Origin: Candidatus Poribacteria bacterium
Lineage (GTDB): Bacteria > Poribacteria > WGA-4E > PCPOR2b
Assembly: GCA_965215015.1 (NCBI GenBank)
Contig: OZ244042.1
Coordinates: 832,001 to 896,000 of the forward strand
Direction: 5' to 3'
DNA: 64,000 bases
Numbering within the stretch: position 1 is the stretch's first letter; each line of letters starts with the position of its first letter. The translations under genes and the position numbers were made by a program. The notes under the pieces are model-generated. The model searched no databases, was not told the DNA's origin, and saw nothing but the letters and a program-made list of their open reading frames with translations. Below are positions 15,466 through 21,769 of this stretch, in pieces.

Positions 15466-15582
15466 GAGTAAAAAAAATAAACCGTCAGATTTGATAATTT
15501 CACGTGACTACTTCGTATTCGTACGGCATAATTCACATTAAAAAAACCAGATAAACATTTGTGAAAACAAGAAAAGGAGAAT

Positions 15583-16716
<1,134 letters not shown>

Positions 16717-16736
16717 GGATCCTTAACTCGCGTGTG

Positions 16737-19700
16737 TTACTCAGATGCTGTTACAGGTAGCCCGACGAAAAGCCGGCTATCAATATCCGTAAGCGGGTCA
16801 ATTTCCCGGCACGCTGCGGCGCGGGCGAACACGATCCCGGGCTGCTTGGCTCGCATCGCACGCGACAAAACGGTAAACCCTTTTGATTGGCTGCTATTGC
16901 GTAATTCCCACGCAACTCGTTCCAGCTCTAAGTTGAATCGAACAAGCCCTTCCCGTGAGCCAACGCATAGCGTGTAGAGTTCATCAGACGTTAAGCCCTC
17001 GCAATACCCGTTACGAATCACAACCTCTCCGCCTCGGATATCTGACACTGTCCCTCGCGCCCCGACAACACAACCAAGTCGATGAAGTCTGCTCGTAAAG
17101 GAGCGGCTTTTGACTGCGAGGATATGTGCTCCCAAGTTGTTATCAGCAAAGTTTTCGTAAGCGGCAATCCATTCTATAAGTTCTTCCGCGTAAGTGTCCC
17201 ACGCTGTTGCATCGTCAGGGTCCCTAGGAACGGGAGGACTACCATCGCCCCTACTGAGAAACGGACTCATGGATGCCCCCGATTCCTTTACAATTTCGAG
17301 TCCACGCTGCATCAACCGTTCAGCGACTTCAATGGTGCGATCAATTCCCTCGCGTTTGAGGAGTGTTCTTAGCGTATCCGCTAACGAGCGTCGCGTGACC
17401 AAACCATCAGGAATAGCAACCTCCATCCCGACAATTCCTGCGAGTTCATCACGCCCCTCAGGGGTGAGACTCAAACTTGCCAATCCCCATATCGCGTCAT
17501 GCCCTGGGGCTAATGCTGTGCATACATTTGGATCCCGTTTGAGATGTCCAGTGATGGAGAGCCGTTCACTAGCTTCTCGTTGGCCCGCCGCTGTGATGGG
17601 CAGAAAAACCGCCGCTTGGTCGCCATCAAAGTCAGCATTCATTAACTCACAGACGAAAGGGTGAACACGGATGACACGGCCTGGCTGGCGTACCGGATGA
17701 AATGCAACAAAGGAGGTAGGCATATACGCAGGGGCTCGATGCACAATCACCCATGAACGTCCCATCAGCTCATCAAGTGCCTGTGTTGCACCTTGGCTGC
17801 GGCCTCGCACGGCTTTGGCATCACCGAGTTCCTTTGTAAGTTCCGGCCCGAAGAGTGCCCATGCCATCTGTTCTGGAATGCCGACCTGATCGGCGCGTAG
17901 CTCCGCACCCGGGACAATGACGCAGCGCCCACTGAAGAGTGTCCGTGCCTTAAAGCGCATGTCTGCCGGGCTTAGCAGCACGTTGAAGTATTCCGCAAGG
18001 CGCGTTTGGAGTTGCTTGAGGGCTTGGAAGGTCAGGCTTTCCGGTGCATCATTTGCAAACATCCGCTCTGCTCTGGTATTGGCATCGGCAAGTACATGAT
18101 ACTCGGAAATGCCTTCACAGACACCAACTTCATCAATGGTTTGACTATGTAGCCACGGATGGGAGACTGGCCGGGCAAGCTGGAGCGTATTTCCAGTCGG
18201 ACGTACAAATTGGAAAGTCAGTCTGTCACCATCAAAGTTAGCGCAGATACCTGCCGCCGAAAGCTGCTCCCTGAGCTTAGTAAACATCGGCGTCGGTGGA
18301 CTTGCTTGCTCAACTTTCCCTGCTGTAACACGATCGAGAAGTGTCTCCGCATCTACTCGCGTCGCAGCACGGGTATTGAAATGTTCCCGCAAAGTTTCAA
18401 ATGCTGAAGTGTTGCGTAGCGTATAGTATTCGAGTTCACCAAGCCCTTGATGATATATAGGGGCCTCGTGGACGATTGGTTCAGATACCTTGAGCTTATC
18501 AAGCGCGATGTGAACTGTCTTCCCCCAATAAACCCAACCAACTGTACTCGGCCGATTCAGTTTTTTGCCGTTAGCTCCAAACGTGAGGGTTTCCATCCCA
18601 TCTTCAGGCAGCCCTAACTTTTGGAGTAGCTCACGGAGTTGATTGACACTAGGTGCTTGAAATGGCGGCACAATGGCCGTTTCTCCTTCCGTCCGTGCGA
18701 TGCGCCCCACGATTGCTTCACGGATTTGACCAAAGTTCATCCGCCCGTGCAAAGCACCGAAGCTGAAGACAAGCTCTACCGGCGTGCCATCGGCGAGGTG
18801 GGGCATCTCATCGTCAGGGGTGATGCGCGAAATGACCCCTTTCGTGCCGTGACGGTTACTGATCTTATCACCCGGCTCAATAATATAAGGGAAATTCAGA
18901 CGCGTAGCGCACGACTCACTAATCACGATGCCGTCCTCAAAGGTCTCCCCGCCCCAAGAGATAAAAGCGGTCAACAGATTACGTCCACACCAAAAGTAGG
19001 GGACATCAGGCTCGTAACCTGTCTGGACAAGTGCAGGCTCTGGGGAGACAGTCAATCTTGGCATCTCCTTGGAACAGCTAACTGGAGCAGCCTCTGGAGC
19101 AGTAGGCGACAACCACTGACGCATCATGTTCGCCCCCATGAGTACTCGCGATGGATCATTGTGTTCGAGAAAAGGGATTAGTGCTGCAGACAGACCTAGC
19201 GTTGCTTCCTGGCTATCATCCACGATGACCAATTTTTTATCACGAATCTCCGCCCCCCTCGCAACTGTCAGAATTTTGCCGACGTTTGGTCCTTCTGGCG
19301 TTTCAAATGGGCAGGTCCGTCCAAAGTGTCCAGAGGTAAAGACCTGATTCCCCTGTAAAATCCGCACCCTACGTAGATGTGTATGCTTGTCGAGCCAGTT
19401 GGTACTGGAGAGTCTCTGAGCGGTAAATGTGTCACGAAAGAACTCGCGCACCCATCTGTCAATCGGAAGCCACGAGCGAATAAGCGACGTATCCCATTCC
19501 AGATCTGGCGGTGCTTCTCTGATACGCGCTTTGAAGTAATCGTACAGTTGATCGCCCACACACTCAATCTTCGCTTGTTTCAGTTTCACGGTTGAGGCGG
19601 TCGGTACGACAACATAGGGTTCACCATCAAGCGTGAACATACCGTCTACATCAGGCTGCGGAATACCCGTGTATTCGACCTCAACATACCCCTCAGTTGA

Positions 19701-19856
19701 CGCCAGCACAAGTTTCACGCGACAGGTGTACGTACCAATTGGCTCAAAACGATAACCGGCTAGTGGCAGCCGGTCAGCAAGGAGTTCTGGCAATCGTTCT
19801 TTCATCAATCCTTCAAAAGACTGCTTGTGCCAAAATGCAGTAATGTTGTTCGACAT
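16737..19856 (-). CDS. miniature single-chain RNA polymerase beta-beta' fusion (RpoB/RpoC-core-like, 1039 aa)
   Basis: Ordered RpoB motifs: THLRR, GRTCPFETPEGPNVG, LIPFLEHNDPSRVLMGANMMRQ, GRNLLTAF..FEDGIVISE, GDKISNRHGTKGVIS, DGTPVE, GRMNFGQI, VGWVY..KTVH, QGLGELE. These are followed by RpoC motifs: LARPVSHPW, clamp helices, FSGRCVIV, HRAP, HPFVC..NADFDGDQ (aa 740-746; nt 17619-17639), EGL..GSREGL, AA...DPL. AGGAGG RBS. Confidence 0.92.
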   Translation of the reverse strand: MSNNITAFWHKQSFEGLMKERLPELLADRLPLAGYRFEPIGTYTCRVKLVLASTEGYVEVEYTGIPQPDVDGMFTLDGEPYVVVPTASTVKLKQAKIECVGDQLYDYFKARIREAPPDLEWDTSLIRSWLPIDRWVREFFRDTFTAQRLSSTNWLDKHTHLRRVRILQGNQVFTSGHFGRTCPFETPEGPNVGKILTVARGAEIRDKKLVIVDDSQEATLGLSAALIPFLEHNDPSRVLMGANMMRQWLSPTAPEAAPVSCSKEMPRLTVSPEPALVQTGYEPDVPYFWCGRNLLTAFISWGGETFEDGIVISESCATRLNFPYIIEPGDKISNRHGTKGVISRITPDDEMPHLADGTPVELVFSFGALHGRMNFGQIREAIVGRIARTEGETAIVPPFQAPSVNQLRELLQKLGLPEDGMETLTFGANGKKLNRPSTVGWVYWGKTVHIALDKLKVSEPIVHEAPIYHQGLGELEYYTLRNTSAFETLREHFNTRAATRVDAETLLDRVTAGKVEQASPPTPMFTKLREQLSAAGICANFDGDRLTFQFVRPTGNTLQLARPVSHPWLHSQTIDEVGVCEGISEYHVLADANTRAERMFANDAPESLTFQALKQLQTRLAEYFNVLLSPADMRFKARTLFSGRCVIVPGAELRADQVGIPEQMAWALFGPELTKELGDAKAVRGRSQGATQALDELMGRSWVIVHRAPAYMPTSFVAFHPVRQPGRVIRVHPFVCELMNADFDGDQAAVFLPITAAGQREASERLSITGHLKRDPNVCTALAPGHDAIWGLASLSLTPEGRDELAGIVGMEVAIPDGLVTRRSLADTLRTLLKREGIDRTIEVAERLMQRGLEIVKESGASMSPFLSRGDGSPPVPRDPDDATAWDTYAEELIEWIAAYENFADNNLGAHILAVKSRSFTSRLHRLGCVVGARGTVSDIRGGEVVIRNGYCEGLTSDELYTLCVGSREGLVRFNLELERVAWELRNSSQSKGFTVLSRAMRAKQPGIVFARAAACREIDPLTDIDSRLFVGLPVTASE

Positions 19857-19922
19857 GCTATCCTCCTATTTCTTTCGTATTGCGTGTGTGTAGATTGTAA
19901 AACGTCAAATATTGCTACTCGC

Positions 19923-20537
19923 TCACCTTTCCTCTTCTTCCCAGCCGCTTGCGATCTCCTTCCATTCGCGGGCAAGGTGTTTTATGGAATGGTGTAAACG
20001 CGACTTCACTGTGCCTTCTGGAATACCTAGCTCTATGGCGGCTTCTCGCAGTGCCATTTCCCTCTGATATATGAGGTGAAGGACTTCGCGTTTCTCTTGG
20101 GGGAGCTCATCAACAAGCTGCCAGAGCAGCTGAGATTGTTCGGCTTGCTCCACCATCACTTCGGGACCATGTGACGAAACGTCAACCATCCAATCTGGAT
20201 CTGGCAGACGTTCCTCCTCATCGTCGAATTCGTCTGGAGGTATTTCAAGGGGTTCCTGTCGCCGTCGCCGCACGGTGCGCAGATGATTGAGGGCGAGGTT
20301 CGTTGCGATGCGGAAAAGCCAGCCCTTGAACTCGCCTTGACCATTCCACTGTTCAGCACGCGTCCAGACACGTAAAAACACCTCTTGAACCAGATCCTCA
20401 GCAGCACTTTCAACCCGCACGATGCTAAGGATATGCTGACGGACGGGCACACGGTATCGAGCAAAAAGCGTTTCAAAGGCGGCGGCATCGCGCTTTACAG
20501 TCTTGCGAATGAGGGTTTGGTCTGATTGTTCCATCAT
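19923..20537 (-). CDS. ECF (group 4 sigma-70) RNA polymerase sigma factor
   Basis: Region 2: AEDLVQEVFLRVW and FKGWLFRIATNLALNHLR. Region 4: AAIELGIPEGTVKSRL. Confidence 0.95.
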   Translation of the reverse strand: MMEQSDQTLIRKTVKRDAAAFETLFARYRVPVRQHILSIVRVESAAEDLVQEVFLRVWTRAEQWNGQGEFKGWLFRIATNLALNHLRTVRRRRQEPLEIPPDEFDDEEERLPDPDWMVDVSSHGPEVMVEQAEQSQLLWQLVDELPQEKREVLHLIYQREMALREAAIELGIPEGTVKSRLHHSIKHLAREWKEIASGWEEEER

Positions 20538-20554
20538 AAAAGGCTTTCACTGTA

Positions 20555-20582
20555 AATGACACCGTAGGAGGGATAAAAGTTC
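20555..20582 (-). promoter_or_regulatory. putative ECF-type autoregulatory promoter
   Basis: Minus strand reads GAACTT(20582-20577)-N16-GTCATT(20560-20555), 17 nt upstream of the sigma ATG. This matches the sigmaE/AlgU-type consensus GAACTT-N16-GTCwrA. Confidence 0.7.
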
Positions 20583-20794
20583 ATTGTCTGAATCAGGATT
20601 CTCAGGATTAGGTTAAATAAAACGCAAAGGCGCGAAGGCACAGAACCGCAAAGAAGATCAGACAAAACTTTGCGTCTCTGCGTTAGATTTTTCATCGAAT
20701 CCCGATTAGGTTTTCGGATTTTGGGTGGCGTGAATGGGTATAAATGTGATAAGATGCACATGTTACTCATCACACAATACATTAGGTTAGGAAC

Positions 20795-21769
20795 ATGTCA
20801 AAAATAAGAATCGGTATTATTGGATCTGGCGGTACCGGGACGCGTCATGCAGATAGGTTCTCTGAAATGGAAACCGCCGAGGTTGTAGCAATTGCGTCAA
20901 GAAACGCTGAAACGGGCAACGCACTCGCTGAAAAACATGATGCGGAGTTTATCTCCAATTGGCAGGCACTTGTCCAGCACGATGATCTGGATGGTGTTGT
21001 TATCTGCACCCATAACGATACCCACGCCGAAATTGCACTCGCGGCACTCCATTGCGATAAACATATCTTTATGGAATATCCATTGGCACGGTCAATTGAT
21101 GCGGGTGAAGCTGTGGTCAAAGTTGCACAAAGCAATCAGCGGGTTCTGCGGATTAACCACTCCGAAACCGTGTCTAACTTGCATCAGGCAATTAAGCAGA
21201 AAGTACAGGGACTTGGAGATCTGCTGTTGACCACCTTTTTGCGCCTTACACCGGGGCGAGGCGTCCGTCCGGAGATTCTTTTCAATTTGCCTGTTTCCGG
21301 TCCACCGGCACACTTTTTCATCTACCACATCTACCCAGTCATCGATATCTTCGGAGGTATCAGGTCGGTCGAAGGGGCAGCGGTTTACGAAGGTTTAACG
21401 GATCAGGGAAATTATAACCGATTTGTCAACACCGTCAATGTCGAATTCAAAAACGGTGGGGTGGGAAGTTGGGTCTGGGCTGGAGGGGTGGAGATTCAGG
21501 ATTCTGAGCAGCACGCCCGCTATGTTCTGACCGGTGGCACAATTAGCGATAGCAGCAGCAAGTGGCACTGTTCAACGGGGACAGGAGTGGAGGAGATTCT
21601 GCCGGTTGACGCCCCAAGTGTTTCGCTTCAGGAACGGTGGATACAGGAGATTCAAAATCAGGAGATAGGCGCAGCGCATAGAGATGCAGTTACCGCACTT
21701 GAAGCGATACGGGTGAGCTTGTCCGCCGAACAATCAATGCAGAAGAAACGACGGATTGTGTTGGAATGA
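20795..21769 (+). CDS. Gfo/Idh/MocA family oxidoreductase (biliverdin reductase-like)
   Basis: IGIIGSGGTG, ICTHNDTH, KHIFMEYP. Confidence 0.85.
   Translation: MSKIRIGIIGSGGTGTRHADRFSEMETAEVVAIASRNAETGNALAEKHDAEFISNWQALVQHDDLDGVVICTHNDTHAEIALAALHCDKHIFMEYPLARSIDAGEAVVKVAQSNQRVLRINHSETVSNLHQAIKQKVQGLGDLLLTTFLRLTPGRGVRPEILFNLPVSGPPAHFFIYHIYPVIDIFGGIRSVEGAAVYEGLTDQGNYNRFVNTVNVEFKNGGVGSWVWAGGVEIQDSEQHARYVLTGGTISDSSSKWHCSTGTGVEEILPVDAPSVSLQERWIQEIQNQEIGAAHRDAVTALEAIRVSLSAEQSMQKKRRIVLE

Follow-up and report, generated by a model that had tools for sequence, protein, structure and literature searches.

Why does a bacterium with normal rpoB and rpoC genes also carry a single-chain version of both at about one third of the size, and what would such an enzyme transcribe? 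This question is raised by a gene in the window, by which we mean the whole stretch of 64,000 nucleotides (nt) analyzed here (contig OZ244042.1 of Candidatus Poribacteria bacterium, positions 832,001 to 896,000), for which an original prediction had proposed a second, streamlined RNA polymerase (RNAP)-like enzyme derived from RpoB and RpoC. That proposal is now backed by intact homologs, selection, a confident structural model and a sound assembly, and to it are added a sigma partner, a promoter, a domain map, a distribution and a set of non-catalytic variants. In our judgment there is an even chance that the locus encodes a two-protein, sigma-dependent minimal RNAP, in which a catalytic core (here the mini-core, or mini-RNAP) works with a dedicated sigma factor under positive autoregulation. 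A sigma-coupled core at one third of the normal size is unexpected to specialists and, if the reading is true, this may be the smallest sigma-dependent RNAP. The gene and its ribosome-binding site are located as follows.

16737..19856, minus strand: mini-RNAP gene (P0001), a single-chain beta::beta' fusion of 1039 amino acids (aa), recognized from the open reading frame (ORF) and its translation, Pfam, AlphaFold2 (AF2) and Foldseek.
19862..19867, minus strand: Shine-Dalgarno sequence AGGAGG of the mini-RNAP gene, read from the sequence, 5 nt ahead of the ATG.

The ORF had been described with a strong ribosome-binding site, and its coordinates were exact, with an ATG start behind the AGGAGG; its strand turned out to be the minus strand, the plus-strand frame over 16737-19856 being riddled with stops. 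The claim that the protein has less than 40% of the normal size also stands (1039 aa vs 1342 + 1407 in E. coli), as do the motif positions given for FED (306-308), GDKISNRHGTKG (329-340) and NADFDGD (740-746); HGRMN (~370-374) and HRAP (706-709) are in place too. The domain map comprises the following parts.

18237..19856, minus strand: beta-like half, aa 1-540, with a family-specific helix (9-29), the fork/region D, regions E and F (FED), the GDKxxxRHGxKG barrel and the beta C-terminus.
16740..18236, minus strand: beta'-like half, aa 541-1039, with the clamp helices, switch 2, the NADFDGD barrel, funnel, F-loop, bridge helix and region H.
18837..18872, minus strand: GDKISNRHGTKG, aa 329-340, basic residues of the beta barrel, conserved in the 65-member alignment.
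17976..18107, minus strand: helical hairpin, aa 584-627, equivalent to the beta' clamp helices (AF2 helices 584-601 and 606-627; aligns to E. coli beta' 267-309).
17619..17639, minus strand: NADFDGD, aa 740-746, Mg-binding Asp triad, conserved in the 65-member alignment.
16890..16988, minus strand: 33-residue helix, aa 957-989, equivalent to the bridge helix (AF2 secondary structure).

In P0001, heavily pruned versions of bacterial RpoB and RpoC are fused in collinear order. Its Pfam domains follow the beta-then-beta' order (Rpb2_3 at 149-204, 4.9e-8; Rpb2_6 at 326-457, 8.3e-40; Rpb1_2 at 700-764, 1.9e-18), and the proposed succession of RpoB and then RpoC blocks was confirmed both by these domains and by a profile hidden Markov model (HMM) of 65 family members, which was compared with the two E. 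coli proteins. On the beta side, HMM positions 106-202 correspond to 473-580 (fork, GRxCPxETPEGPN), 209-265 to 651-707, 267-296 to 792-821 (FED), 301-395 to 1054-1148 (GDK...KG barrel) and 370-520 to 1177-1342 (C-terminus), with a weak trace of beta 118-148. On the beta' side, 561-775 correspond to 267-516 (5.5e-46; clamp helices, switch 2, NADFDGD), 790-841 to 589-640 and 871-957 to 704-794 (F-loop, bridge helix), with weak matches of 507-556 to ~76-126 and of 971-1007 to ~1318-1354. The fusion joint lies at about aa 520-545, where the end of E. coli beta (to 1342) runs directly into the weak beta' 76-126 match. The mini-core accordingly keeps both double-psi barrels with their catalytic residues, the fork/region D, switch 2, the clamp-helix hairpin, the funnel, the F-loop and a full-length bridge helix. 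The segments without a counterpart in the family HMM are beta 149-472, beta 822-1053, ~25 residues after beta' 309 and beta' 795-1317, and the beta' N-terminus is lost as well, apart from the weak ~76-126 match. Set against the E. coli domain boundaries, beta has thereby lost its lobes and its flap (with SI2), and beta' its rudder, its jaw and its trigger loop (with SI3). The lack of a trigger loop follows from the bridge helix passing straight into region H, beta' 794 being succeeded by 1318 with 14 HMM positions between.

Structure prediction and classification place the protein in the same way. AF2, which the original prediction had suggested and which was run on a 65-row alignment, predicted a single confident and compact body, with a predicted local distance difference test (pLDDT) value of 93.4, a predicted template modeling (pTM) score of 0.91, 911/1039 residues at 90 or above and the long bridge-helix equivalent at 957-989. 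Foldseek gave a probability of 1.00 for the matches of the model to bacterial beta and beta' chains, the top ones being bacterial beta chains (E 5e-23); the template modeling score on the query was ~0.4, as is to be expected with each target chain covering half the query. Among solved structures the best matches were bacterial beta (2.3e-43) and bacterial beta' (1.6e-22), archaeal subunits scoring lower at ~2e-30, so that the mini-core is closer in sequence to the bacterial (2.3e-43) than to the archaeal subunits. A beta-type barrel with GDKxxxRHGxKG and FED and a beta'-type DxDxD barrel are both present, as in any two-barrel core, whereas neither the cut-off scores and full domain set of canonical RpoB and RpoC nor the ~2850 aa of a full-length fusion were found. 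The NCBIfam scores are 5- to 30-fold under the cut-offs for the rpoB (TIGR02013, 177.7 vs 801 bits), rpoC (TIGR02386, 93.3 vs 963.5 bits) and beta/beta' fusion models, the best NCBIfam matches being the fusion models PRK09603 (179.4 vs 4632 bits) and PRK14844 (160.9 vs 5372 bits).

The residues on which catalysis depends in multisubunit RNAPs are widely kept across the 65 aligned members, as seen for the Asp triad (D742 in 62, D744 in 63, D746 in 62), the beta-side residues (G329, D330 and R335 in 65, H336 in 63, K339 in 61, K331 in 60), D308 (61) and R237 (64). This conservation bears on the proposal that the protein is a core mimic, an RNAP-derived, sigma-binding partner acting as an anti-sigma-like sink or chaperone with catalysis auxiliary or vestigial, which we regard as improbable. 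Each catalytic residue and each template- or hybrid-handling element is present in 59-65/65 members at 37-85% identity; a 1000-aa two-barrel fold would also be a very costly means of binding a 200-aa sigma, and a sigma/anti-sigma pair targeting only itself would yield no output. On the other side, the gene stands directly 3' of an autoregulated sigma factor of the extracytoplasmic function (ECF) type, the usual anti-sigma position, with no recognizable anti-sigma present, the sigma-docking hairpin is kept, and full-length members without the Asp triad (P0158, P0188) exist together with a D742N subclade under purifying selection.

The gene is no isolated curiosity of one assembly. Among 90%-identity clusters, the top 120 all fall within 990-1106 aa and 50-98% identity, with Rpb1_2 and Rpb2_6 in 120/120 and Rpb2_3 as well in 109/120, and those named by a source are called "hypothetical protein" or carry a chain of Pfam names; among the 150 best 50%-identity representatives, 64 measure 945-1101 aa at 37-54% identity, the remainder being mostly fragments. 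The search for homologs that had been suggested thus returned many intact ~1000-aa proteins with the same collinear architecture, and the dN/dS computed among close relatives, 0.11-0.18 for the core (0.09-0.22 for the sigma), is not near 1 and speaks for purifying selection. In a tree of the clamp-helix-to-barrel block, 17 family members split from 19 canonical RpoC of nine phyla with a Shimodaira-Hasegawa-like approximate likelihood ratio test (SH-aLRT) support of 100, and the family's end branches are several-fold longer than those of canonical RpoC. Because the tree had no outgroup, no donor phylum can be named for the family, which lies on a long branch outside all 19 sampled RpoC. Two clusters in the ESM Atlas belong to the same family; they comprise 135 and 73 members and are labeled "hypothetical protein" and "DNA-directed RNA polymerase family protein".

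These data leave a practically negligible probability to a mis-assembly or a decaying rpoB/rpoC pseudogene. Such an artefact is refuted by the more than 120 intact clusters, the dN/dS of 0.11-0.18, the separate branch with SH-aLRT 100 and the host genome itself, one closed 5.94-Mb contig on which normal rpoB (C1:2191856-2196250, 1747 bits) and rpoC (2197292-2201302, 1643 bits) are both present, separate from the mini-RNAP and 1.34 Mb away from it, as the earlier reader had wanted confirmed. A single 7829-nt contig spans positions 16500-20900 in all of four runs and shows 0 differences and no joint there; the runs belong to one study and may be the source sample itself, and their contigs give no indication of mis-assembly. 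Nothing was found in favor of an artefact save a split gene in one relative (G055). In this locus, L091 (G055:C2:820900-825300), the gene forms two overlapping ORFs of 607 and 441 aa whose halves meet at query residues 552-555 (tblastn), near the beta/beta' joint; a frameshift, an error in sequencing and a true split form are all conceivable. Another irregular member, from a Brocadiaceae genome (L022, 3252-5837), has 861 aa as called vs 1004-1095 aa in the other 18 modules and may reflect an internal deletion or an assembly gap.

What does the mini-core work with? Immediately 5' of it lies a sigma gene, and this linkage is the strongest functional clue.

19923..20537, minus strand: ECF-type sigma factor of 204 aa with regions 2 and 4 (Pfam Sigma70_r2 4.1e-17, r4_2 4.5e-11; TIGR02937).

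The protein consists of regions 2 and 4 only, reaches 112.2 bits against the superfamily model TIGR02937 (sigma70-ECF; cut-off 42.9) with no specific ECF equivalog cut-off reached, and is preceded by an ECF-type promoter, all of which fits ECF (group 4) sigmas. Its regions are joined by an acidic linker of ~45 aa with a conserved PxWM(I/V)D, in which D119 is invariant and P114 and P125 are near-invariant. A sigma ortholog stands immediately 5' of the mini-RNAP on the same strand in 20/20 loci with upstream DNA, and no other conserved neighbor emerged from ORF clustering across 21 loci; likewise, no conserved third module gene was detected by Pfam on ten neighbors or by all-vs-all comparison of the downstream ORFs, among which the high-GC ones appear spurious as genes. 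In 13 loci outside Poribacteria the sigma and core genes are at most ~28 nt apart or overlap by 1-4 nt, while in Poribacteria (L007, L009, L011, L024) we observed spacers of 66-263 nt. The sigma and polymerase identities run parallel (87/85, 70/70, 54/54, 48/49 and 38/39%), with r = 0.93 over 171 non-independent pairs of 19 modules.

The two genes are inherited and lost together. In a core-less genome of the same genus (G060), both are cleanly gone at the bioD-gfo locus, where bioD and gfo lie 115 nt apart; in a second (G059) an unrelated 333-aa ORF takes the polymerase's place and only the C-terminal half of the sigma remains, and in a third (G061) the same replacement is accompanied by a frameshifted sigma. 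No sigma ortholog was found in five other core-less genomes, whose best matches are paralogs of 36-48% identity. Since the sigma is decayed or absent wherever the mini-core is lost, it appears to have no life of its own. The original prediction had named the ECF sigma as no more than an assay additive and had overlooked an obligate partner, inherited together with the core and equipped with its own conserved promoter. The replacement ORFs themselves (L092 of G059, 934-1935; L093 of G061, 897-1898; both minus strand) carry a GS...DxD motif and resemble, by eye, a putative nucleotidyltransferase.

Which promoter, then, does this sigma read? Footprinting among relatives revealed one invariant block just 5' of the sigma gene.

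20558..20583, minus strand: ECF-type promoter TGAAC-N14-CGGTGTC, from the footprint alignment, its last base 20 nt ahead of the sigma start codon.

Conserved across phyla, TGAAC-N14-(C/T)GGTGTC occurs in 19/19 loci, including one variant (N15/CCGGTCC in L021), with fully diverged interior spacers, and lies 33-72 nt before the sigma start in 18/19 loci and 154 nt before it in L010; GGAGG frequently follows it. The -10 pattern reported for an ECF sigma is G-13 T-12 G-11 N C-9 (PMC6372665), and GTGTC of our motif fits it. When a weight matrix trained on 13 other genomes only was scanned over the 5.9-Mb host genome, the operon's own site ranked first genome-wide (28.3), followed by two sites within long ORFs (21.5 and 21.0) and by all others at 17.9 or below. 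Regular expressions in the host genome gave five matches to the strict motif vs 1.4 expected and 35 to the loose motif vs 33 expected, and five other host genomes gave 17 motif matches, five of them the operons' own promoters, vs eight control matches. From the matrix and regular-expression scans, the own operon is the sole recognizable sigma target. A widespread accessory polymerase whose one recognizable promoter is its own is a puzzle.

The solitary promoter also gives a foothold to a different division of labor, in which the sigma and the HOST core fire the operon and the mini-core is the sole regulon product, working sigma-free, for instance on single-stranded DNA or RNA templates or in primer or short-RNA synthesis. 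Were the mini-core the output instead of the promoter reader, a single clear promoter, the operon's own, is what one would expect; the promoter geometry is that of an ordinary ECF promoter, the mini-core is without the flap that positions sigma region 4, and the absence of lobes, jaw and rudder, the elements that grip downstream DNA and the hybrid, fits short or unusual products. The decay of the sigma after core loss fits this scheme and a physical partnership equally. We nevertheless consider it unlikely, given that the stop-start overlaps and few-nt spacers in 13 loci suggest equimolar co-translation, that the clamp-helix hairpin is kept and the sigma linker unusually conserved, that a complex prediction described below (0.38 vs 0.00 for the best of three controls) weakly supports binding, and that a host-core loop without an anti-sigma would have no brake.

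A sigma-dependent mini-RNAP and these alternatives share the architecture, the selection, the sigma linkage and the promoter, and they differ on binding, template and output. Under the preferred reading, the module is a self-contained two-gene transcription unit in the order promoter, sigma and single-chain beta::beta' mini-core. Region 2 of the sigma would dock on the kept clamp helices to form a holoenzyme of ~140 kDa, which would open TGAAC-N14-CGGTGTC promoters and transcribe DNA with two-metal catalysis, managing like YonO without a trigger loop. Alpha and omega would not be needed, presumably because the fusion stands in for the assembly scaffold, and recognition of the operon's own promoter would result in positive autoregulation.

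The evidence on binding begins with the clamp helices of beta', where sigma region 2 docks on canonical cores. Their counterpart, as a sigma-dependent holoenzyme would need it, was found both by the HMM alignment to beta' 267-309 and as the hairpin at 584-627. The sigma70-contact residues beta' R275, E295 and A302 appear to be A, A and R in the mini-core. We also predicted a complex between core residues 250-1039 and the sigma, using alignments built here. The complex score was 0.38 (runs 0.38, 0.31 and 0.42) vs 0.00 for the best of three controls, the runs sharing at least 24% of contacts with a partner pLDDT of at least 63. The mark that this score passes is reached by 58/80 solved complexes and by 2/110 mismatched pairs, and at scores of 0.60 or below by just 7/80 solved complexes and by both passing mismatches; moreover, the pass may reflect likeness, because sigma-core complexes are already solved. 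The prediction weakly supports binding of the sigma to the mini-core.

Several observations weigh against a sigma-dependent mini-RNAP. On normal cores the beta flap tip positions sigma region 4, and the mini-core has no counterpart of beta 822-1053; with the flap missing, the strict N14 spacing could equally reflect the host core. The family-specific N-terminal helix 9-29, with its conserved W9, H10, S13, L22 and P23, is a candidate substitute for the flap, and it lies N-terminal to the stretch 250-1039 used in the complex prediction, whose score is weak in any case. No second credible promoter came out of the regular-expression and matrix scans of the own genome or the pattern scan of five others, and a holoenzyme for which only its own promoter is visible lacks an obvious output. 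Absent from most genomes of the phylum and from some of the genus, the module is dispensable. In the active site, N740 of NADFDGD varies among the 65 members (N in 38, D in 16, E in four, Q in three, S in two, G in two). In RNAPs this residue senses the ribose of the incoming nucleoside triphosphate, and such variation may mean that the choice of substrate sugar is relaxed or altered. Eight of the nine clusters P0032-P0040 (P0032-P0036 and P0038-P0040), 66-70% identical to P0001, read NANFDGD (D742N), as do L010 and L088-L090 from four complete genomes of one genus (g6); this subclade keeps an intact gene of 1039 aa, and comparison among its own members gives a dN/dS of 0.18-0.27. P0158 and P0188 are full length with all three Asp of the triad gone, P0188 also being without FED and K339, and in P0164 the third Asp is Asn. 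As judged from the alignment, the D-to-N subclade and the two members without the triad leave a non-catalytic role possible. The same natural variants are ready controls with which catalytic and sigma-binding roles can be separated.

How far does the module spread, and does it travel? The best 80 loci in the species-genome collection comprised 21 of the mini-RNAP type, the other 59 being ordinary rpoBC, and the 21 belong to at least six phyla (Poribacteria, Chloroflexota, Planctomycetota, Latescibacterota, Myxococcota and Hydrogenedentota). Within the host phylum the mini-RNAP is present in 32/176 genomes (27/133 of high quality), mostly of two families, and within the host genus in 14/19, from which we conclude that it is accessory. 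A Chloroflexota member (54% identity) is closer to P0001 than some Poribacteria members (46-47%). It is possible, though rather doubtful, that the module is an autonomous, horizontally transferable and orthogonal ~140-kDa system that serves its own promoter class only, independently of the host core, with templates that are not visible in the chromosome or with self-transcription as its function.

The patchiness across phyla, with that Chloroflexota member nearer than some Poribacteria, and the presence/absence polymorphism at one locus within a genus could also suit a chromosome-resident polymerase of a mobile element or phage, YonO-like or jumbo-phage-like, and other fused beta-beta' ORFs do occur in viral contigs and in the ESM Atlas. 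We hold this origin to be very improbable. No conserved phage, integrase or defense gene accompanies the module, and relatives show synteny of its flanks. Among the top 80 viral loci, matching ORFs scored no higher than 315 bits against the family HMM, with 0 sigma hits of this type, 50,697 phage records contained 0 places covering 80% of the query, and fold matches in BFVD were weaker than the cellular ones. As observations in their own right, the viral fused beta-beta' ORFs (L095-L174) run to 1450-2900 aa from stop to stop and include no family member, and the further fused clusters of the ESM Atlas (1200-1800 aa, one with a pyrophosphatase domain name) have no linked sigma of this type.

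The earlier reader had not recognized the protein as a described family, and our full-text literature search likewise found no description of a ~1000-aa sigma-linked beta::beta' protein. The main text of an ECF classification (PMC7826278) contains no Rpb2/RpoB or related term, its supplementary tables being a place where this sigma group may be listed. Comparison with known systems clarifies what sets the module apart. The full-length beta::beta' fusions behind PRK09603 and PRK14844 (~2840-2890 aa) share its beta-then-beta' order, but they are the housekeeping enzyme with every domain, and the mini-RNAP misses their cut-offs by more than 25-fold. Such fusions occur in Helicobacter and Wolbachia. 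The rifampicin-cluster residues D516 and S531 appear altered in the mini-core. Bacterial RNAP with an ECF sigma, for instance M. tuberculosis RNAP-sigmaL (PMC6372665), resembles the mini-RNAP in the barrels, fork, switch 2, clamp helices, bridge helix, two-domain sigma and ECF promoter; it differs in comprising ~2750 aa plus alpha2 and omega, whereas the mini-RNAP is one 1039-aa chain, dispensable and with fewer domains.

The closest architectural analog, by description, is K2ORF6p of the yeast linear plasmid pGKL2, whose RNAP consists of K2ORF6p (974-982 aa) and K2ORF7p (132 aa) according to PMC2919709 and PMC6211774. K2ORF6p is a ~1000-aa Rpb2::Rpb1 fusion with about half deleted and its conserved blocks in order; unlike the mini-RNAP, it is of eukaryotic or poxvirus-like origin and plasmid-borne, has no sigma, needs a small subunit with beta' C-terminal regions and has a capping enzyme and a helicase as partners. 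YonO of the B. subtilis prophage SPbeta is an efficient DNA-dependent RNAP without trigger-loop homology (PMC5467207), and it is like the mini-RNAP a single two-barrel chain of ~100 kDa with no trigger loop. According to the same paper, what YonO has in common with multisubunit RNAPs is limited to a few catalytic residues (PMC5467207), whereas the mini-RNAP aligns over ~700 residues. YonO's description sets it apart as prophage-borne with no linked sigma, in contrast to the chromosomal, sigma-linked mini-RNAP, and neither the prophage context nor the scarcity of shared residues typical of YonO was found here. The non-virion RNAPs of jumbo phages (phiKZ, AR9; PMC7598289 and PMC5449584) have reduced beta/beta', no alpha or omega and an extra specificity protein; as described there, they are split polypeptides, phage encoded, with a specificity subunit that is not an ECF sigma, while the mini-RNAP is fused. 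If the mini-RNAP is active, it would show how little of the ~400-kDa bacterial core sigma-directed transcription needs, serve as a naturally minimal model of how two-barrel polymerases work and evolved, and offer a compact orthogonal promoter/sigma/polymerase set for synthetic biology.

Regarding the surroundings of the gene, the statement that it lies outside any rpoBC context with no phage genes nearby was borne out, rpoBC being 1.34 Mb away and the adjacent genes including no phage-like or defense-like one. An anti-phage defense role was tried with PADLOC and rejected, since 0 families matched the mini-core; one marginal match (2e-4) linked sigma region 4 to a model bearing a helix-turn-helix. 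A scan of 15500-21500 against Rfam returned no match. Between the divergent gfo and the promoter, an 82-aa ORF (20534-20782) is probably not a gene, having no Pfam hit and only weak conservation in close relatives, and is read as non-coding leader. The leader at 20600-20790 and the matching stretches of L007-L011 show many indels among close relatives, and short inverted repeats such as CGCAAAG / CTTTGCG occur in the leader. Finally, at 20583-20611 of the window, separate 31-letter contigs of higher depth touch the TGAAC element on its upstream side in three of the four runs, one of them differing by one letter, which suggests strain variation or a repeated word at the promoter edge.

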